The notes beneath the pieces were generated by a model. It ran no database searches, had not been told where the DNA came from, and saw only the letters and a list, made by a program, of their open reading frames with translations. A stretch of DNA of 64,000 nt. It comes from an uncultured Bdellovibrionales bacterium (GTDB lineage Bacteria > Bdellovibrionota > UBA1018 > CAIPTA01). The DNA lies in the NCBI GenBank assembly GCA_964612065.1, contig CAZTCD010000006.1:172-64171 (forward strand), written 5' to 3'. Shown here one piece after another: positions 720 to 23,280 of this stretch. The number at the start of each line of letters is the position of its first letter. Position 1 is the first letter of the stretch. Made by a program: the position numbers and the translations under genes.

Positions 720-1757
720 TCAAAGCCAGCGGCGCCGTTTTAGCTCCGAGAAAATCTGCTCTGCCTCTTTCCGGTGGCCTTCCTGATCCACGTGAGCAGG
801 GTCTGTCCAGTGCTTCCGGAGGGCGGGATCGTCGAAGGCGTGGCTGATGTCGAGGCAGTAGTTCAGGCGGCGGCAGGCGGCTCGAAGATCCGTGTAATAG
901 CGGGCCCATCGTTGCTGGTCCTCACGCACCCATGGCTCATTGCTGTCGAGACCCACTTTGGCCCGAGCCGCCACGAAACTTTCGGGTATGGTGCCGGAAA
1001 ACGGCTGGAGCACTACGAGAAACTTGAGGCCGAATTCCCGGGCCGTGGCCTGCATCATGCGCACATTGTGCTCCCAGCGCTCGGCGGCCGAGAAATGATC
1101 GGGATAGCCGAAGTCCACGCTGAAGAGAGAGTTGTTGGGGCCAACGCTGGCCCGGAGTGCGTAAAACATTCGGAAAAGGCCGGGCAGCAACGAGCCTTCC
1201 GCGTGCTGGGCGTGCATGGGGGAAAAGAGCTCGCTGGTAATGCCGCGGAGGGCGCCCATTCGTTCCGCTGATTGAGTATAGGAAAAAGTATTGTTTCCCG
1301 GAGCATTCAGCACGCCATCGTTGATTCCATCGAGCACGATCACGATATCGGGCCGGAGCGGAACCACATCGCGCTGGAGTTTGATCAGCTCCTGGGTGGA
1401 GTTGTAACCGGACACGCCGCCATTCCTGACCTGGCAGGCCCGCCTGCTGTTTGCTCCGCAAAGCCGGCCCAGCTGCCGCACCCAGTTTTCCGGCATGTAG
1501 AGGGAATCGGTGGTGGATCCTCCGAGCGCTATCAGGCTGAGTGGGCGCCCCTGCCCGAAAGAGTATTCCGTGAAGCTCGGGTTCTTCGACCATCCCAGAA
1601 ACGGATCCAGCACTCTCTGCTCGAAAAAGCTCTGGCGCACCTGATAGCTGTGGCCGAAAGCGGAAAAATAGGCCCGGGATCCAAGTTCGAGCAGGCCGAG
1701 CGTGAGCAGCAAAACTCCCGCGCAAAGCAGAACAACGAATTGCCAATTGCTTTTCAC
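720..1757 (-). CDS. SGNH/GDSL-family hydrolase with N-terminal TM/signal
   Basis: 345 aa. GGSTTD serine block, DGINDG block and the SGNH pattern are present, with an N-terminal hydrophobic segment. It overlaps murF by 4 bp (ATGA). Confidence 0.5.
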   Translation of the reverse strand: MKSNWQFVVLLCAGVLLLTLGLLELGSRAYFSAFGHSYQVRQSFFEQRVLDPFLGWSKNPSFTEYSFGQGRPLSLIALGGSTTDSLYMPENWVRQLGRLCGANSRRACQVRNGGVSGYNSTQELIKLQRDVVPLRPDIVIVLDGINDGVLNAPGNNTFSYTQSAERMGALRGITSELFSPMHAQHAEGSLLPGLFRMFYALRASVGPNNSLFSVDFGYPDHFSAAERWEHNVRMMQATAREFGLKFLVVLQPFSGTIPESFVAARAKVGLDSNEPWVREDQQRWARYYTDLRAACRRLNYCLDISHAFDDPALRKHWTDPAHVDQEGHRKEAEQIFSELKRRRWL

Positions 1758-3127
1758 TCGCGCAAGGCCTTCCAGATATTTTCCATCCGCATGCCGCGGG
1801 ATCCTTTGATCAAGATGCGATCGCCGGGCTTGGCGCTGGTGCGAAGATCAGAAGCCAGCTCTTCCTGGGAGGCGAAATGTTTCACGGAGCCGCTGAAGGC
1901 GCGCCCGCGCAGCTCTTCTTCCAGCATTTTCATTCTTGGCCCGAAGAGGAGCACGTGCTTCACTCCGTGGCGCAGGATCGGATCGGCGAGCCCCCGGTGC
2001 AGCTTTTCTTCGAGCTTTCCGAGTTCGAGCATATCGCCCAGGCACACCCAGGTATCGCCCGCGCTCTTTCCCGCAAAGAGCGTATCCAGCGCGGCCTCTA
2101 CCGAGGCGGGGTTGGCGTTGTAGGTGTCTGCCAGAACCTTGCAGCCCTTCCACTGGTGCACTTCACTCCGGCCTGGAGGGGGAGTGAACGTGGCGAGGCC
2201 TTTTCGCATCTCAGCCACGCTCAACCCGAGGGCGTGAGCGAGGGTGATTGCGCCGAGAAGGTTCATGGCGTTGTGTGCGCCCTCAAGTGGTACGCCGAAT
2301 TTTTCTTTGGTTTCTCCCAGCCCTTCCACTTCGATGAAGAGCTCCTCGCCTTCCACCACGATCCTGGCATGCACATCCGCCTGATTCTTGATTCCGTAAG
2401 CAACCCGCTGCGAGGGCTGAAGGTGGAGGCCGGCCTGGCGGGCGATACGCGCATCATCGAGATTCACGGCGGCGAGGCCTGCGCGCTTGGCGAGCACTTC
2501 GAAGAGCAGGCCCTCTTCCTTTTCCACATTGTCTTCGTCGATCAGCTTCTCGAGGTGCTCTGGACCGATCGACGTGAGGAGGCCCGCATCGGGGCTCACC
2601 AGCTCCAGGTGCTGGATCATCGATCCTGGCTCGTCGATCCCCACTTCGATCACTGCGGCGTCGTGAGTGGGGCGCAGGCGGAGGAGAGTGGTGGGCACGC
2701 CCTGGAATCCGTTTTGCGAAGCCTGGGTGTGCAGCACGTTTTTGTATTTCCCGCGGAAGATCGCGGCGAGGAATTCCTTGCTCGTGGTTTTGCCCGCGCT
2801 TCCGGCCACCGCCACCACCGGAAGAGCAAACTCGCGCCTCCAGGCGCCGGCGAGAGATCTCCAGGCGGCGAGGGTGTCGTGTACCGGAAAGGAAAGCATG
2901 CCTTCCGGGCAGGTGAAATCCTTCCGGTGCACCAGTGCTGTAGCGCCCGCGGCTTTGGCTTTCTCCACATGATCGTGGCCATCGCTGGTTTCGCCTTTCA
3001 GGGCCACGAAGAGAGAGCCTTTGGTGAGCTCGCGGGTGTCGGAGGAAATAAGGGAGATCGGAAGGAGGGGCCCTTGTTCCGGTTGGCCTAGGGCGCCGGC
3101 GATCCAATGCGAAGTAAGAAAGGTCAT
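1754..3127 (-). CDS. murF: UDP-N-acetylmuramoyl-tripeptide--D-alanyl-D-alanine ligase
   Basis: 457 aa with a Mur ligase domain architecture and a GSAGKTT P-loop. It stands alone rather than sitting in a dcw cluster. Confidence 0.8.
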   Translation of the reverse strand: MTFLTSHWIAGALGQPEQGPLLPISLISSDTRELTKGSLFVALKGETSDGHDHVEKAKAAGATALVHRKDFTCPEGMLSFPVHDTLAAWRSLAGAWRREFALPVVAVAGSAGKTTSKEFLAAIFRGKYKNVLHTQASQNGFQGVPTTLLRLRPTHDAAVIEVGIDEPGSMIQHLELVSPDAGLLTSIGPEHLEKLIDEDNVEKEEGLLFEVLAKRAGLAAVNLDDARIARQAGLHLQPSQRVAYGIKNQADVHARIVVEGEELFIEVEGLGETKEKFGVPLEGAHNAMNLLGAITLAHALGLSVAEMRKGLATFTPPPGRSEVHQWKGCKVLADTYNANPASVEAALDTLFAGKSAGDTWVCLGDMLELGKLEEKLHRGLADPILRHGVKHVLLFGPRMKMLEEELRGRAFSGSVKHFASQEELASDLRTSAKPGDRILIKGSRGMRMENIWKALRE

Positions 3128-3228
3128 CTTGGGATTGTAGGCTTTAAAGGGCGGTATAGGCCAGAAGGGGAGAAGGAGCCATAGCGAGGGGATTGGCGGC
3201 CTGGGAGGCGAGCAGAGCGTTAAAACGT

Positions 3229-3390
3229 ATGGTGCGCGGCTAATGGTTGATGGCTCAGAGAGCTCTAAATGAAGGGCACCTGAGCGATATCGCCGCCAGA
3301 GGGCTTCTGATGCAATCTAATGCAAAGTGTCTGATTATAAGGGGGAAAAGGAAATGGAGCTAACCCTGCCAACCATTAACCGTGCACAAT
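3229..3390. mobile_element. MITE-like miniature element carrying the terminal inverted repeats of the IS1595-like element at 21226..22501
   Basis: 3229-3249 reads atggtgcgcggctaatggttg and 3370-3390 reads caaccattaaccgtgcacaat. Each matches the IS IRs (attgtgcgcggctaatggttg and caaccattaaccgcgcacaat) with 1 mismatch. The interior is 162 bp and non-coding. Confidence 0.5.
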
Positions 3391-3613
3391 AAAAAAAAGA
3401 GGCTGCATTCACAGGGGGTGGTAAACCGCACTGATCCTGCAGCCGGAAAGATCAGATGACCGTTCCTCTTAAAGGATTACAATTCCACCTTTAAGAGGAG
3501 GGCCACCACAACCTTACTACTACTTGGATTACTCATGTTGGTGACCACCCCCTTTCTAGAACCGTCTAGGTCCTGTGAACATCTTAGCACCATGCAGAAA
3601 GAGCGAGCAAGGC

Positions 3614-4456
3614 ATGCCACGAAGTATTAACGCATTGATTTTACTTATCTTTTTGTGCTGCGCTGCGGCGTGCTCCTCGGGAGACGCCAAGAAAGACTAT
3701 GCGTGTCTGCACTGGTTTCCCGCCCAGGGAAAGCCCATCGGCGTAATGCTCGTAACGCACGGTTTGAATCTGCGTCCCTCCAAGATGGAAGAGCTGGCCC
3801 AGCGCTATTCCGAAGCTGGCTATGAAGTGCTGCGCCCGAGCTTCACCGGCCACTGTCGTGAGCCCGACGAACTGAAAGAGGTGCGTCCCTCCGCTTGGGA
3901 AAAAGACGCCCGCGAGTTTTACTCCTTGGCGCAGAAAAAAGCGGAGCAGCTCAAGGTGCCGCTTTATCTAACCGCCTATTCCTTCAGCGGCCTCGTCTAT
4001 CATTCGATGAGAAAAGAGCTTCCATTCAAAAAGCGCGTTTATCTCGCGCCGGCGCTGGAAACGAAGTTCTGGTATCCGTTCGCCATTTTCCTCATCGACT
4101 TCGTTCCTTCCTTCACCTTCCGCACCCAGATTCCCGCGGGCTACTACGCCCAGGAGTATTCCGGCTTCCGCTCCGTGCTCGCGATGAACCACTTCCTGCT
4201 TCAGTGGCAGAAAAACGAAAGCGAGCCCGATGATAGCCCCGTGCTGGTGTGGGCCCATCCGGGCGATGAGCTCGTGAGCGCCTCCGGCCTCCAGGAAATA
4301 GCAACGAAGAGAAAGTGGGATTTCCGCGAGCTTTCCATTGAGGGGTGCGGTTTATCCTCCTGCTACAAGCACCTGATCGTGGATTCCGGGGCTCTCGGAA
4401 AGCCGGAGTTTGACCGTTTGGTGAAAGGGTCTCTGGAATTTCTTGTGAAACCCTGA
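3614..4456 (+). CDS. alpha/beta-hydrolase-fold lipoprotein
   Basis: MPRSINALILLIFLCCAAACSS lipobox, then GVMLVTHG...AYSFSG, which reads as a nucleophile elbow. The track ORF starts at 3575, but the internal ATG at 3614 fits a signal peptide. Confidence 0.45.
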   Translation: MPRSINALILLIFLCCAAACSSGDAKKDYACLHWFPAQGKPIGVMLVTHGLNLRPSKMEELAQRYSEAGYEVLRPSFTGHCREPDELKEVRPSAWEKDAREFYSLAQKKAEQLKVPLYLTAYSFSGLVYHSMRKELPFKKRVYLAPALETKFWYPFAIFLIDFVPSFTFRTQIPAGYYAQEYSGFRSVLAMNHFLLQWQKNESEPDDSPVLVWAHPGDELVSASGLQEIATKRKWDFRELSIEGCGLSSCYKHLIVDSGALGKPEFDRLVKGSLEFLVKP

Positions 4457-4588
4457 CCACCCGCCTGCCCAAAATATCTTCATTCGTTCACGGGAACCCA
4501 ATTTTCGGGCCTCCACTTTCGCAATCTGAAACTCCCAAGAAAAGCGGGGCGGCCCTAAAATCCCTTTGTTTAGTGCAACCCCGAGAAA

Positions 4589-4846
4589 GTGAGCAAACAC
4601 GTGAAACACACTGTTCTTTTCCTTGGCCTATTTATTTCTGCTGCGTTCTCCGCAGGGGCCCATGCCGATCCCACCTGCCGCGACTACCCCGCCTTTCTCC
4701 AATGCGTGAAAGGCAAGCAAGGTACCTGGCCGGAATGCCGCGAGCGGCACTGTGAGGGCGGGGAAACCAGCCTGCGTGCTGATGGCCTCCAGGAAAGCGC
4801 GTTGGAGTGCGAACCGGGCAGCCAGTGCCAGACCATCATGGATTGA
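4589..4846 (+). CDS. small secreted cysteine-rich protein (hypothetical)
   Basis: 85 aa, with a GTG start at 4589 or 4601, signal peptide LFLGLFISAAFSAGAHA and 8 Cys in the mature part. Confidence 0.3.
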   Translation: MSKHVKHTVLFLGLFISAAFSAGAHADPTCRDYPAFLQCVKGKQGTWPECRERHCEGGETSLRADGLQESALECEPGSQCQTIMD

Positions 4847-4854
4847 GTGGCGTT

Positions 4855-5748
4855 TTATTTCGAGCTATCGCCGGTTTCGTCGAGCTTATAGCGGCGGCGG
4901 AATAGCCGGCTCATCTCAGCAATCTTGAGCATCATGAAGAAATCGAAGCAGTGGAAGTCCACGTCGAGAGCGGGCTCTCCGTAGAATTTCGCTCCCGCGA
5001 GGATATAGCTCTGGATGAGAGCTGGGATTTCTTTCTCCATGCTTTCATCAGGTTGTACGCGGGGAAGGATGCAGCGGTATTTTTCCGTGGGCATCACGTC
5101 GAGCTCGTCCACGGCCAGGCTCTTGGCCCGAAGGAGGGCCAGCAGGCGGGAGGCCACCACGGCGTCTACGGTATGCACCGAGGCGCATCCGAAAAGGTAG
5201 GCGGTATCGGTTTTGCGAATGTATTCCGCGATTCCCTTCCACAGCAGGTTGATAATGGCGCCCGTGCGGAATTCGGCATGGATGCAGGCGCGGCCGAGCT
5301 CGAGTTTCACCCCTGGCTGGGCCAGCACGCCGGTGAGGTCGAATTCACCCTGGGAGTAAAAACGATCGGAGAAGGTAGAGCAGATCATCCGGTAGGTGCC
5401 CACGATGCGGGCGCTCTTGCGATCGATGATGATGAGGTGGTCGCAGATGGAATCGAACTCGTCGAAATCGAGGAGAGTTTCGTGCTGGCGATCCTGGAGC
5501 TCGCGGTAAAAGATCTCGTGGCGGAGCTTGAGCACTTGGCGGAGCTCGAACGGGCTCTCAGCGGTTTTCAGCACGAAGCTGTCGGTTTGCTGGTGCACAT
5601 GCACTTTGGGCTGAAAGTTCTCGAGGGGGAATTTGCTTTTGCGGAGGGCGCGGGAGGCGCTGAAGTTCCGGAGGGCCGAAAGAGGGGAGCGGGCGGCGTT
5701 CAGCCGGCTCATTGGGCCGAGTTTCTTAGCACGCAGGGCTGACTTCAT
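4855..5748 (-). CDS. GNAT-fold N-acyltransferase (OlsB/putative-hemolysin Acetyltransf_5-like)
   Basis: 297 aa. Length and motifs resemble lyso-ornithine-lipid N-acyltransferase / acyl-HSL-synthase-like GNATs. Confidence 0.45.
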   Translation of the reverse strand: MKSALRAKKLGPMSRLNAARSPLSALRNFSASRALRKSKFPLENFQPKVHVHQQTDSFVLKTAESPFELRQVLKLRHEIFYRELQDRQHETLLDFDEFDSICDHLIIIDRKSARIVGTYRMICSTFSDRFYSQGEFDLTGVLAQPGVKLELGRACIHAEFRTGAIINLLWKGIAEYIRKTDTAYLFGCASVHTVDAVVASRLLALLRAKSLAVDELDVMPTEKYRCILPRVQPDESMEKEIPALIQSYILAGAKFYGEPALDVDFHCFDFFMMLKIAEMSRLFRRRYKLDETGDSSK

Positions 5749-5878
5749 ATGATAGTCTCCTTAACAAGCACAGGGTCTCATACGAATCGGAACCAAGCCG
5801 TCAGTGTTTTGTTTTGTCGGGACAAAGATCCACAAAACCGACTGAAAGCGGAGGGCATTCTGCCCTAAAGGTGACTCA

Positions 5879-6529
5879 ATGATCAAGGCAATAATTTTCG
5901 ACTTGGATGGCACCATAATCGACTCTGAGTCATTGAGTTTTAAGGCGATTTTGGATTGTGCGGCCCGCTGGGGGGTGCCGGTTACCAAAGAAGAAGCGGG
6001 TACAGTAGTGGGTCGCAAGTGGGACGAAGCCTTCGAAATCCTCTTCGCCCGGCATCAAATCCCGGTAAGCCGGGAAGAGGCTACGGCGCAGGTGATCGCC
6101 CATTTTCAGGATATCGTGCGCAAAGAAGTGCTCTTCGTGCCCAAGGTGAAAGAAGCCATCCTGGATTTTTCTCAGCATTTCCGCCTGGCCCTGGTTTCCG
6201 GCTCGCACAGGGCCGATGTGCTCTGGGCTCTCCAAAAACTGGGCGTGGATCATCTGTTTGAGCTGGTTTACGGGGCAGAGGACTATCCCCGGTCCAAGCC
6301 TGCTCCGGACGGCTATCTCAAGGCGCTCGGAAACCTGGAAGTGCTCGCCGAAGACACTGTCGTGTTCGAGGATTCGGTGCCTGGGCTGATGAGCGCCCAC
6401 GCCGCTGGCATCCGTTCCGTGGCCATCACCAGCACCAATCACTTCGGCCACGACCAAAGCCTCGCCGCGGAAAAAATCCGCGACTATGAAGGCGTGGACG
6501 CAGCCTGGGTGAAAAAGCGATTCGGGTAG
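5879..6529 (+). CDS. HAD-superfamily hydrolase (beta-phosphoglucomutase-like subfamily IA)
   Basis: IIFDLDGTIIDSE motif I, then S/T motif II and the K...D motifs. Confidence 0.7.
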   Translation: MIKAIIFDLDGTIIDSESLSFKAILDCAARWGVPVTKEEAGTVVGRKWDEAFEILFARHQIPVSREEATAQVIAHFQDIVRKEVLFVPKVKEAILDFSQHFRLALVSGSHRADVLWALQKLGVDHLFELVYGAEDYPRSKPAPDGYLKALGNLEVLAEDTVVFEDSVPGLMSAHAAGIRSVAITSTNHFGHDQSLAAEKIRDYEGVDAAWVKKRFG

Positions 6530-6539
6530 ATCCCAAGAC

Positions 6540-7646
6540 CTATAGCGAGAGCCGAAAGAACTGCCCGTACTCGTTGGCGTAGTCCTGCGAGATCATCCCA
6601 TATCCGGGGAGGGTTTTCCCTTCAATCACGGCTTCTGCTCCGAAGCCGGTGGTGCCCCAGGAGTTTTTGAAGAAGTAGACGCCCTTCCGCTGGAAGGTCT
6701 TGGTGGAGCCGTCGTCCATCTTCAGGCTGTATTCGATTTCGAGGTCGTCATCATAGCCCACGATCACCACGGAATGCCCGGCCGGCTTACTTCGGCTCTT
6801 GCTGCGATCGAGGGAGCCGCGCTCCGGATAGGTCACGGTTCCTTTTTCCCACAGGCCGAGATCTCTGCCGATCGTGAGCTCGTCGGCGAGCCGGTGGTTC
6901 CAGGCGCCATAGTAGAATTCGATATCGAGGGTGAGGGGAACTCCATAGCTCAGCGTTTCTTTGATCTCGTTGGTGCCCCAGACGATGCCGCTTTCGAAGC
7001 GGCCACGATCGCTGAAAAAGCGGGCGCGGTTTTCCTGGGCTTCCCGTCTGGCGGAAAGGAAGTCGGCATCCAGGGTGGAGAGCTCTTCGTCTTTCATCAA
7101 AAGGAGGGCCGGATCGCGGTGGCCGGTGAGGCAGTTGGCCAGCTTGCGGTCTTGGATGTGGCCGCAGCGCTCGCGGGCGATACCGTCGGAGAGGGATTTC
7201 CAGGTGGCTCCGATATAGGGCATCTTCTCTTCGGCGGGAGCGCCGTAGTCGTGCAGGGCGCGGAAGTTCGCGGGCGAGGTGGAGCCGTCGTCGGTGGCGT
7301 GCTGCGCGATGAGGTATTGCAGGTATTCTTCGGAAAGGTCCGGCGCACTTTCCAACTTCTCTTCCACCACCAGCATGCTTTCGAGCAGGGCAATGGCGGA
7401 AAAGATGGAGCAGGAACCGCGTGCGGCCTGGGTTTTCACTTCGCTCTGCTGGGCTATTACCGGCAGCACATCGCTTTTCTTGGGAAGATTGCTGCGCGAT
7501 CGGCCTTCCAGATCCACGCGTGGGTGAGCCAGCTGCTTATAAGGTGCGTCGAGAAAAGCCTCGCTGGCGAGAGCTTGGGAGAAAAGAGTGGGAGAAAGAG
7601 AGAGCGTGGCGAGCGCGAAAAGTTTCAGCAAAGTGGAGGCGTTCAT
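6540..7646 (-). CDS. secreted papain-like cysteine peptidase (family C1)
   Basis: Signal peptide MNASTLLKLFALATLSLSP. Q...GSCSIFS reads as the catalytic Cys box, AGHSVVIVGY as the His box, and KNSWG as the Asn-Ser-Trp-Gly box. The track ORF extends to 7958, but the SP-containing start is the ATG at about 7646. Confidence 0.65.
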   Translation of the reverse strand: MNASTLLKLFALATLSLSPTLFSQALASEAFLDAPYKQLAHPRVDLEGRSRSNLPKKSDVLPVIAQQSEVKTQAARGSCSIFSAIALLESMLVVEEKLESAPDLSEEYLQYLIAQHATDDGSTSPANFRALHDYGAPAEEKMPYIGATWKSLSDGIARERCGHIQDRKLANCLTGHRDPALLLMKDEELSTLDADFLSARREAQENRARFFSDRGRFESGIVWGTNEIKETLSYGVPLTLDIEFYYGAWNHRLADELTIGRDLGLWEKGTVTYPERGSLDRSKSRSKPAGHSVVIVGYDDDLEIEYSLKMDDGSTKTFQRKGVYFFKNSWGTTGFGAEAVIEGKTLPGYGMISQDYANEYGQFFRLSL

Positions 7647-7734
7647 ATTGGGGTTCCGGGGGCCAGGGGTTAAGGTAACGGGTGCCGCAGAAATACCGCG
7701 GCTTGGAAGCTGGCGCAAGGAGTCACGGGAAGCT

Positions 7735-21211: not shown

Positions 21212-21225
21212 GAGCTTTAAGCTTT

Positions 21226-22501
21226 TATTGTGCGCGGCTAATGGTTGAAAGCGATCCGCCTCCTAGAGGTAGGATCGCTTCTAGCCACGAATTTCATCCA
21301 ATCATCGCTTAGATTTACCTGACTCAACATAATCCGCATTTTGTAAAATTCGTGGAACTTAAGCACCTTTTCCGCGATCCCTACCCGCATTGCCGGCGAA
21401 TCCAGATGCCTGCGCGGGTCCTCTTTGCTCTTCTTGATAAAGATCGTTCTCATAAAATTCTTCCAGACCATCAAAAGAGTGAAGCTTTCGATCATTCCAA
21501 TCGAATGCTTGGCAAAGGCTATCGTTTCTCGCGTAAAGGTAGGGAGCTGTTGGCGGGTCAACCGGTCCAAATGGTTAATGGCGAATAGTTTATTCCTATA
21601 GTTCCTGGCTTTTTTCGCAGACGTGATGACGTGCTCAATCTTCGTGCCCCTTGGCAGGAGCTCGATCGCTGCCCGGTACGCATAATGATTGTCGCTATGA
21701 AAAATGAGCTCCCCCTCAGATCTGGCGAGCATGCGCTTCAGTATGGAATAGGAAGCGAGTTGGATGGTGTTTCTCGGAAATCTACCATGCATTTTTGCGA
21801 GCTCCTGATCTTGCTGGCGCTGGCCGGGACTCATGCGTCCTTTGCGATTCAGGGGAGAAAAGTTGAAATCGTATAGAAAGTAGGACTCTCGGCCTACCAC
21901 ATGATTGATGTTGTTGGGCTCAAACTGAGAGGCGGAGAAGTTCTCAAGTCCGTCGTAAGCAACGGACTCGCGCACCGTCACATCTTTCGCCTTATGTGCC
22001 TGAAGCAATAGGCCCTGGCGGGCGAGTTCCTGAAAACGTCTCTGCACGGTATCGAGAGAGCATTTTAAGTCCCTGGCCAGACTGCGCCTCGACTGCCCGT
22101 GGCCCTGACGATGGAAGATTTCCTTGTAGGTGGGCTCGGTTCTGTCTCGATAGAAGAGGTAGAAAATGGAGTCCGAGAACACCTTTCCGCAGTTACAGCA
22201 GGAAAATCGGTGTGTTCTATAGGGATAGCGTGTCACTTTGCGCGACCCGTAGCGAACGAACCGTCTACCGTGTTCGCCAGATTCCAACGAGTGCCAGGAA
22301 CATCGAGGGTTAGGGCAATAAGGAGGAGATTCAAAAAGTTCAAAGGGAGCGTCAGTGGAATGAATCATCCGCTACTAGGTGCAAATAAACACCAAAGTCC
22401 GGGATTCTAAACTCTTGAAAACGGACAAAAATGAGCCCTCGAAGGGCAACTTGCCTTAGGTGGCCGTCCAAATGCGCGACAACCATTAACCGCGCACAAT
22501 C
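21226..22501. mobile_element. IS1595-family-like insertion sequence (about 1.28 kb) with 21-bp terminal IRs and an 8-bp TSD
   Basis: Left IR attgtgcgcggctaatggttg (21227-21247) and right IR caaccattaaccgcgcacaat (22480-22500). Flanked by direct repeats taagcttt at 21218-21225 and 22502-22509. Confidence 0.7.
21238..22368 (-). CDS. IS transposase with N-terminal C2C2 zinc ribbon
   Basis: 376 aa. YCPNPRCSWH...CCNCGKVF is the zinc ribbon. It lies between inverted repeats, and the 8-bp TSD is typical of IS1595. Family assignment is tentative. Confidence 0.65.
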   Translation of the reverse strand: MIHSTDAPFELFESPPYCPNPRCSWHSLESGEHGRRFVRYGSRKVTRYPYRTHRFSCCNCGKVFSDSIFYLFYRDRTEPTYKEIFHRQGHGQSRRSLARDLKCSLDTVQRRFQELARQGLLLQAHKAKDVTVRESVAYDGLENFSASQFEPNNINHVVGRESYFLYDFNFSPLNRKGRMSPGQRQQDQELAKMHGRFPRNTIQLASYSILKRMLARSEGELIFHSDNHYAYRAAIELLPRGTKIEHVITSAKKARNYRNKLFAINHLDRLTRQQLPTFTRETIAFAKHSIGMIESFTLLMVWKNFMRTIFIKKSKEDPRRHLDSPAMRVGIAEKVLKFHEFYKMRIMLSQVNLSDDWMKFVARSDPTSRRRIAFNH

Positions 22502-23280
22502 TAAGCTTTCCGGCTTCTCCGGCAGAAGTAGAGCACGAAGGGCGTAGCGGCAAGCCCAGCCAACGAGCCTATCTGGGTGAGAGTAAGCCATTCCACGCCC
22601 AGCATGCCCCGCTCCAGATCGCCGCGGTGGAAATCCATCAGAAAGCGGTAAATGCAATAGCTCGCCACGGTGAAGGTGCCCAGCCATCCGGCTGGTAGGC
22701 GGAGCCTTTTTCGAGCGAGCAGAAGAGCCGCGGTTAGGGCGAGCAGGAAGAACGCTTCGTATAGCTGCGTGGGGTGCAGCGGCAGAGATCTGAGCGGCAC
22801 GGGCACCTGGTTGTGCTCGTGGGAGAATACCCATCCGGTGAAGCCCTGGTAAGGGGCTCCGTAGCAGCAGCCTTGCAGAAAACAGCCGATCCGGATGATG
22901 GCCACGGAAAGGGGCAGGGCAGGGCATAGAGTATCGGCATATTCGAGCACATCGAGCCTTTTCCAGCGCAGCCCCAGCATGAACACGATCCAGGCCGGAA
23001 CGAAGCCGCCAAAGAGCGAAAGGCCACCCTGATTCAGTGAGAGAAGCAGGAGGGGCGATGGAGCGAACTCTTCCCAGTGAGCTGCGGCGTAGAGGGCTCG
23101 CGCTCCGATCAGTCCGGCCACGATGGAAAGAAAGAAGAGATCGATGAGGGGGGCGAGGGCCAGTTTCCTCTTTCTGGCGAGAAGCACAACGGCCACGAAG
23201 CCCAGAGCGTGAGCCAGGGCCAGAAAGAATCCATAGGATTTAACGGAAAATCCGAAGATGGAGAAGAGAACGGGCTGCAT
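22501..23280 (-). CDS. lgt: prolipoprotein diacylglyceryl transferase
   Basis: Lgt signature regions (FSIFGFSV..YG, GGLSLFGG, GCFLQGCCYG, HPTQLYE) are present. Confidence 0.85.
   Translation of the reverse strand: MQPVLFSIFGFSVKSYGFFLALAHALGFVAVVLLARKRKLALAPLIDLFFLSIVAGLIGARALYAAAHWEEFAPSPLLLLSLNQGGLSLFGGFVPAWIVFMLGLRWKRLDVLEYADTLCPALPLSVAIIRIGCFLQGCCYGAPYQGFTGWVFSHEHNQVPVPLRSLPLHPTQLYEAFFLLALTAALLLARKRLRLPAGWLGTFTVASYCIYRFLMDFHRGDLERGMLGVEWLTLTQIGSLAGLAATPFVLYFCRRSRKA

Follow-up and report, generated by a model that had tools for sequence, protein, structure and literature searches.

A solitary MITE-like element with insertion-sequence ends upstream of murF, probably an immobile relic of transposition

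The intergenic region between murF and an alpha/beta hydrolase gene, in the 64-kb stretch of DNA analysed here (the window), holds a short sequence whose two ends repeat those of an insertion sequence (IS) elsewhere in the window. The locus raises three questions: (i) whether the short sequence belongs to the family of that IS, (ii) how it came to lie where it does, and (iii) whether it still moves or acts on its neighbours. A sequence-only reading had taken it for a miniature inverted-repeat transposable element (MITE) that the IS could mobilise in trans. The reading reached here is that it is probably a solitary, non-coding and non-autonomous derivative of the IS family, similar to type II MITEs, which was inserted by transposition and is now likely an immobile single-copy relic. 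The features of the locus are as follows.

1754..3127, minus strand: murF, with all three Mur-ligase domains; lies 101 bp downstream of the element and shares its strand
3228..3391, minus strand: the whole non-autonomous element; its canonical IRL-to-IRR orientation is on the strand of murF
3228..3249, plus strand: IRR-type end, TATGGTGCGCGGCTAATGGTTG
3250..3369, minus strand: core, 120 bp, non-coding, 49% GC, unique in the window
3370..3391, minus strand: IRL-type end, TATTGTGCACGGTTAATGGTTG, with one mismatch against the IRL of the resident IS
3392..3575, minus strand: conserved unannotated transcription unit (the RNA unit) of ~184 nt (~180), with a predicted promoter at 3576-3612
3575 or 3614..4456, plus strand: alpha/beta hydrolase gene, with the conserved RNA block between it and the element

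Under the boundary convention of the IS the element measures 164 bp (3228..3391), and the 162 bp of the earlier reading correspond to 3229-3390. Its left end (3229-3249, ATGGTGCGCGGCTAATGGTTG) agrees with the IS end at 21227-21247 (ATTGTGCGCGGCTAATGGTTG) at 20 of 21 positions, or at 22 of 23 when the adjoining bases are included; its right end (3370-3390, CAACCATTAACCGTGCACAAT) agrees with the IS end at 22480-22500 (CAACCATTAACCGCGCACAAT), likewise at 20 of 21. The 18-nt repeat pattern GTGCGCGGYTAATGGTTG, searched with at most three mismatches, occurs at four sites in the 64-kb window, all of them ends of the element or the IS, against 0.01 expected from shuffles, and relaxing the search to six mismatches adds no site in the window. 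An inverted-repeat search recovers two 22-nt arms, 3228-3249 and 3370-3391, with a spacer of 120 nt. The structure described by the sequence-only reading is thereby confirmed: both IS repeats recur with a single mismatch each, in inverted arrangement around a 120-bp non-coding core with no open reading frame (ORF) above 38 aa, and the gene coordinates agree with a position between murF and the hydrolase.

These counts also bear on an origin outside transposons, in which the repeat would be a chance or functional one, such as a protein-binding site or an RNA hairpin, upstream of murF. The strong hairpin predicted for an element transcript (-54 to -59 kcal/mol, z -3.5 to -4.5) would suit such a role, yet the fold is almost wholly pairing between the terminal repeats, a 21-bp match to both IS ends is expected only 0.01 times, and the element is missing from all three relatives that keep murF and the RNA block. 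This origin is so improbable as to be effectively refuted.

The two arms can be told apart at position 12 of the repeat. The left arm has a C there, as does the IS end in which the stop codon (TAG) of the transposase lies, and the right arm has a T, as do transposase-proximal ends. The element thus has one end of each IS type, and the two are oriented to each other as they are in the IS. A T-to-G change at position 3 of the IRR-type end (ATGGTG against ATTGTG) is absent from all 8 full-length IS ends examined and is the sole variant unique to the element; the right end, GCACGG included, has the sequence of the functional IRL of L016, a full-length relative of the IS. In size (162-164 bp, against 1276 bp for the IS) and in its terminal repeats (20 of 21 at each end, two different IS ends represented) the element agrees with what is expected of a MITE.

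The IS in the window has the following features.

21226..22501, minus strand: resident IS, putative autonomous partner, 1276 bp, with 22-bp repeats at 21226-21247 and 22480-22501
21238-22368, minus strand: transposase ORF, 376 aa, its stop codon inside the terminal repeat
21218..21225, plus strand: left copy of the target site duplication (TSD), TAAGCTTT, a perfect 8 bp; right copy at 22502-22509
Predicted empty lgt site of the IS: GAAAGCTTAAAGCTC

The outer limit of the IS lies one base outside ATTGTG, a position held by T in 8 of 10 family ends. A second line of evidence comes from a contig of a sister sample (L028, Logan DRR438490, 99.3% identical, equivalent to window 23764-22472), in which the sequence continues from lgt into the IS for exactly 30 bases before the contig breaks off. 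In Logan assemblies, which are built with k=31, no 31-mer occurs twice within an accession by construction (PMC12424806). A stop after k-1 bases is the signature of a repeat boundary in a de Bruijn graph, from which window 22501 follows as the first base of the repeat; together with the T at the outer position this supports an IS boundary there. Since the contig ends in this way, the strain behind L028 appears to carry the IS at the same lgt site, and the IS appears to be present in that sample in more than one context. With an intact ORF, a perfect TSD and more than one apparent context in the sister sample, the resident IS has the look of an active element.

The insertion fell on the stop codon of lgt (22501-23280, minus strand). 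In place of the ancestral TAA, which was part of the target TAAGCTTT, the gene now ends in a TAG composed of the terminal IS base and two TSD bases, and the length of the Lgt protein is unaltered by the insertion.

The transposase has 476 homologues, mostly metagenomic, some of which carry the JGI label 'IS1 family'. Its scores stay below the NCBIfam cut-offs for ISL3 (25.1 against 180 bits), IS1 (19.4 against 100) and the Zn-binding variant of IS256 (16.9 against 150), and these weak matches all lie in the N-terminal part. In Pfam no family model reaches its cut-off and the matches are to helix-turn-helix (HTH) models, with DDE_Tnp_IS240 matching weakly in 8 of 37 homologues; tblastn against PLSDB (72,556 plasmids) finds no relative, and a sequence-profile search of the PDB gives no family assignment. 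An AlphaFold model built with 37 homologues has a pLDDT of 86 and a pTM of 0.88, and its best Foldseek matches in the PDB are the transposase of ISCth4 (IS256 family), retroviral integrases and the MuA core. The residues D139, D226, N265, D268, R272 and E281 are invariant and all present in the resident IS, and the N-terminus combines CxxC...CxxC with an HTH. The confident model, the integrase, MuA and ISCth4 fold matches and the conserved acidic residues argue for a member of the DDE/RNase-H superfamily with a predicted zinc-finger and HTH N-terminus. The conserved N265-x6-R272 motif is similar to the DDN(K/R) variant of IS1595-type enzymes. The IS shares an N-terminal zinc-finger plus HTH transposase and an 8-bp TSD with IS1, IS1595, ISL3 and the Zn variant of IS256; unlike IS1, ISL3 and IS256_Zn, it has a transposase below every curated model score. 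As no curated model fits this transposase, the IS family would count as uncharacterised, or at least uncurated.

The terminal repeat identifies this family rather than the individual IS, because it is nearly identical across diverged relatives. Three further full-length members were compared: L012 (3867-5121) and L016 (3870-5152), with transposases 68% and 62% identical to that of the window, and L027 (335-1608, Logan DRR438491), with 79.6% nucleotide identity to the window IS. The 21-bp repeat is nearly invariant in all of them and in the window IS. The C at position 12 of the left end is otherwise found only in the transposase-distal end of the resident IS, and by this marker the element is closest to the resident IS among the family members examined. 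The earlier claim that the element derives from this same IS therefore stands in part: the repeats match and the C at position 12 is specific, while the core is unrelated and the repeat is family-wide. Given that conservation, the donor or the mobilising transposase need not have been the window IS. L027 is a second, distinct member of the IS family and comes from the same sample as the 99.3% strain L024; a truncated protein (P0029) of the same 90% cluster is encoded on a 54.7-kb NCBI contig. Exact-protein look-ups returned no record for P0029, nor for the 376-aa transposase, MurF or P0001. There may thus be two IS types in the community, or in the genome itself, that could act on ends of this kind.

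Between its ends the element has nothing in common with the IS. Its ORFs are all non-ATG and 21-38 aa long, none starts with ATG, and the transposase finds no tblastn match within it, so that it lacks coding capacity as a MITE would. Local alignments of the core with the interiors of the window IS, L012, L016 and L027 score inside the shuffle distributions, and similarity restricted to the terminal repeats is the type II pattern. Nor does the core significantly resemble the native intergenic DNA of relatives. A native intergenic origin for it was considered and rejected, as 10 of 300 shuffles did as well as the best stretch of 77 bp and the other comparisons were worse.

The same alignments weigh on decay in place, whereby a full-length member would have inserted at the locus and then lost its transposase gene by deletion, never moving as a short unit. 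A single copy without an intact TSD fits such an old event. The 120-bp core is close in length to the 111-134-bp leader (IRL to ATG) of full-length members, so that IRL, leader and IRR together give about the size of the element, and on the IRR side the match may extend 6 bp into the C-terminus of the transposase (GCC ATC AAC CAT TAG against GCT TTC AAC CAT TAG). Against this, the core has no significant similarity to the leader or interior of four members, among them the resident IS that shares the IRR variant, and on both sides the match ends at the inner edge of the repeat or not more than a few bases from it. Decay in place is a possible course of events, though an unlikely one, and because of the unrelated core we tentatively favour movement as a short unit over shrinkage in place.

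Comparison with relatives, reached through homologues of the hydrolase (loci L024, L025, L026 and L029), suggests when the element arrived. L024 (Logan DRR438491) aligns collinearly to window 3085-7713, with 99.33% identity, and carries the element with 162 of 162 positions identical; since this assembly is independent, the element is not an assembly artefact. L025 and L026 show 70-81% identity to the window in aligned stretches (murF ~77%, hydrolase region 70-76%), and the hydrolase of L029 has 55% protein identity to that of the window. The element is missing from all three of these lineages. BLAST homology of the window to L025 and to L026 breaks off near the start of murF and begins again at window 3392, immediately beyond the element tip. 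In the junction alignment the window reads ...CACAAT|AAAAAAAAGAGGCTGC against CAAAAAAAGAGGCTGC in L025, and L029 has the same T-tract junction as L025 and L026. In an empty allele the block-side sequence ...GCAGCCTCTTTTTTT would be joined directly to sequence on the murF side. The flank on the murF side (3128-3227) aligns to no relative, and the boundary of the element is confirmed on one side.

Absence from three relatives, a breakpoint at the tip of the repeat and presence in L024 together mark the element, on these comparisons, as probably a lineage-specific insertion, not an ancient conserved feature. The comparison of the locus in relatives that the earlier reading had proposed thus goes against the ancient remnant that it had named as a refuting outcome. 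The sole close strain (99.3%) also bears the element, and the insertion would date from after the split from the relatives at ~77-80% nucleotide identity and before the split of the 99.3% strains.

The insertion point has a character that recurs in the family. In all five independent family insertions (the window IS, the element, L012, L016 and L027) one end adjoins a T-rich run that has 6-9 T among its last 10 nt; in three of the five (the element, L016 and L027) a G+C-rich hairpin precedes this run, so that the two form an intrinsic terminator. About 2% of window positions have such a T-run. Finding at least 5 of 10 flanks at one has a probability of ~1e-6 at the genome-wide rate, or 2e-3 at a 5-fold higher intergenic rate, which suggests that the IS family prefers the distal edge of terminator T-tracts. 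That the element has this family signature is indirect evidence that the transposition machinery of the family placed it.

The duplication expected of such an event is another matter. Under the IS boundary convention the 8-bp flanks of the element (TTAAAACG against AAAAAAAG) match at 5 of 8 positions in low-complexity sequence. No intact 8-bp TSD is thus present at the element, as the sequence-only reading had observed and unlike the perfect TSD of the resident IS; a perfect TSD is found at the window IS only, the other full-length copies having none. In this respect the element departs from the usual MITE, and its flanks would hold no direct record of the transposition event.

The number of copies separates a relic from an amplifying MITE. 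The window holds one copy, also when six mismatches are allowed in the repeats, and among the fetched loci the core matches L024 and no other. An exact scan for the repeat in 185,579 species genomes, a set that excludes the source genome, returned 11 singletons in unrelated taxa, with neither a transposase nor a partner repeat, and these are consistent with chance. In JGI metagenomes a scan for paired repeats 105-135 bp apart gave one match, L023, inside a coding region; with that location and a bare pattern match it was rejected as a copy and attributed to chance. Both scans required exact repeats, and the paired scan this spacing, so that diverged copies or copies of other sizes would escape them. 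Together, the window (the part of the source genome covered), the fetched loci and the genome and metagenome scans contain no second copy. The k=31 Logan contig L024 passes both junctions of the element unbroken, which suggests a single context for the element, as a second identical copy should break the contig. It is thus likely that the element is single-copy genome-wide.

In Methanoregula MAG contigs (L005:7837-7858 and L008:7940-7961) the right end of the element is matched at 21 of 21 to 22 of 22 positions. The match stands by itself beside an A-run in an archaeal intergenic spacer, with no partner repeat or transposase within 8 kb, and is probably due to chance, given the size of the collection scanned.

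An active multi-copy MITE family, whose other copies would lie beyond the 64-kb window and depend on the resident IS for mobilisation in trans, would account for two nearly intact repeats and for a target site with the family signature; the resident IS seems functional and, in the sister sample, apparently has more than one context, and prokaryotic MITEs range from 1 to 22 copies by strain (PMC10969869). Such a family should nevertheless have left more traces than one copy in 64 kb, no paired-repeat element of this size in the JGI metagenomes and only chance matches to the repeat in 185,579 genomes. The unbroken k=31 contig of L024 is a further difficulty, as any repeat of more than 31 bp that recurs in different contexts should interrupt it, and the element has no TSD and one mutated terminal base. 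An active family is quite improbable, and the central claim of the sequence-only reading, that the arrangement is the hallmark of a mobilisable MITE, is not borne out.

The preferred reading of a solitary relic would run as follows. The element keeps the two 22-bp ends that the family transposase must recognise, around an unrelated 120-bp core. It would have arrived in this lineage by transposition, most likely through a transposase that a resident-type IS provided in trans, and would have landed at the outer edge of the terminator T-tract of a conserved ~180-nt RNA gene upstream of murF. Because it is apparently single-copy, has no intact TSD and carries a mutated terminal base, its present state is more likely that of an immobile relic than of an amplifying MITE. 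Mobilisation in trans, present immobility and any effect on murF are what we infer from the sequence.

The RNA unit adjoining the element is better conserved than the genes around it. Its counterparts lie at L025:4780-4963, L026:4861-5041 and L029:~2163-2341. Identity over 3392-3575 is 98.4% in L025 and 88.6% in L026, against 70-81% for the flanking genes, and the block occurs in L029 as well. In four of four lineages it is preceded on the minus strand by CCTTG(C/A)T(C/T), an 18-nt variable spacer and TGnTAnnAT, so that the predicted promoter is of a conserved type with a -35 and an extended -10. Its terminator, GGCTGCA...TGCAGCC followed by a T-run, touches the element with its T-tract. The predicted fold of the transcript is a rod (-70.8 kcal/mol, z -4.2) in which the 5' GGGGGUGGU pairs with the 3' ACCACCCCC, and an apical 12-bp hairpin shows one compensatory change. 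GGGGGUGGU doubles as the Shine-Dalgarno (SD) sequence of an ORF that is 19 codons long and has the same length in the relatives. In the folding model this SD would be sequestered by the 3' anti-SD in the rod, with the terminator as the alternative fold. The unit lies upstream of murF on the same strand in every case (window, L025, L026 and L029) and has no Rfam match; it looks like a candidate sRNA, or a leader or attenuator upstream of murF.

With the element on the murF side, in the orientation of murF and with its promoter motif facing that gene, and with the RNA block intervening toward the hydrolase, any regulatory effect would most likely fall on murF, not on the hydrolase. The promoter or terminator that the sequence-only reading envisaged for the hydrolase has to give way to this geometry, as an RNA gene of ~184 bp lies in between and the TATAAT motif faces the other way. 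The feature in question is the following.

3334..3339, minus strand: perfect -10 hexamer TATAAT in the core, with a weak -35 (TTAGCT, 18-nt spacer) at 3363

As a motif match the hexamer reads toward murF. Scans of the element for terminators and promoters at default stringency return nothing, and the TATAAT surfaces only when the -35 is relaxed; the element itself has no match in Rfam. Any read-through transcript toward murF is predicted to form a hairpin with a 21-bp stem. An element-wide hairpin transcript, for which the earlier reading had proposed a folding check, was looked for in this way and set aside, as the fold consists essentially of the stem of the terminal repeats and small local hairpins.

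A bolder reading joins these observations to the target-site preference. It proposes a new IS family with a Zn-finger/HTH DDE transposase that homes to the edges of terminator T-tracts as a 'safe-haven', and a miniature element between the RNA unit and murF that replaces or uncouples the ancestral control of murF, for example through the TATAAT at 3334-3339 or the 21-bp leader hairpin. We consider it rather unlikely as a whole.

Among known systems the element is one more IS-derived miniature element, of a well-known class. Gene-adjacent MITEs such as Correia in Neisseria and RUP in pneumococcus supply promoters, terminators and RNA hairpins (in part PMC10969869). Like them, the element adjoins a gene: it lies 5' of murF, which is essential, would fold into a strong hairpin if co-transcribed and has a perfect -10 facing the gene; Correia and RUP have tens to hundreds of copies and measured effects on expression, whereas the element offers a motif match. 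Type II MITEs resemble their parent IS in the terminal repeats and nowhere else, as the SM elements of Sulfolobus do (PMC10969869). The element resembles them as a 164-bp non-coding intergenic sequence whose repeats match a co-resident IS around an unrelated core, and differs in lacking a known second copy, an intact TSD, observed mobility and presence/absence polymorphism between close strains. It would stand at the low-copy extreme of type II MITEs, or represent no 'family' at all. MITEAba12 of Acinetobacter, 113 bp long and IS-derived, has 1-22 copies per genome in the account available (PMC6382973 via PMC10969869). According to that account it is likewise non-autonomous and reliant on the transposase of a co-resident IS, and is single-copy in some genomes; unlike the element, MITEAba12 is described there as seen to transpose, with defined TSDs and many copies across its host family, and the parent IS families are unrelated.

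The element helps to fix the ends of a rare, uncurated IS family (22-bp repeats, 8-bp TSD) and is one of the five insertions that show the bias toward terminator T-tracts. Its boundary also led to the conserved unannotated RNA gene, which is probably the more interesting object in the region; this RNA unit and the terminator-edge targeting of the IS family are the leads most worth following.

The element further marks a variable spot directly upstream of murF. A remnant of the ykuD (L,D-transpeptidase) gene found there in one relative, possibly of its signal-peptide part, was sought to the left of the element, and the best tblastn match (22 aa, E=0.095 in a 300-bp target) was too weak to be accepted. 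Between the RNA unit and murF, L025 carries that ykuD gene (4187-4702), L026 an unrelated 209-aa hydrophobic ORF (4144-4773) and L029 just 65 bp (2098-2162); the window has 101 bp of unalignable DNA (3128-3228) together with the adjoining element.
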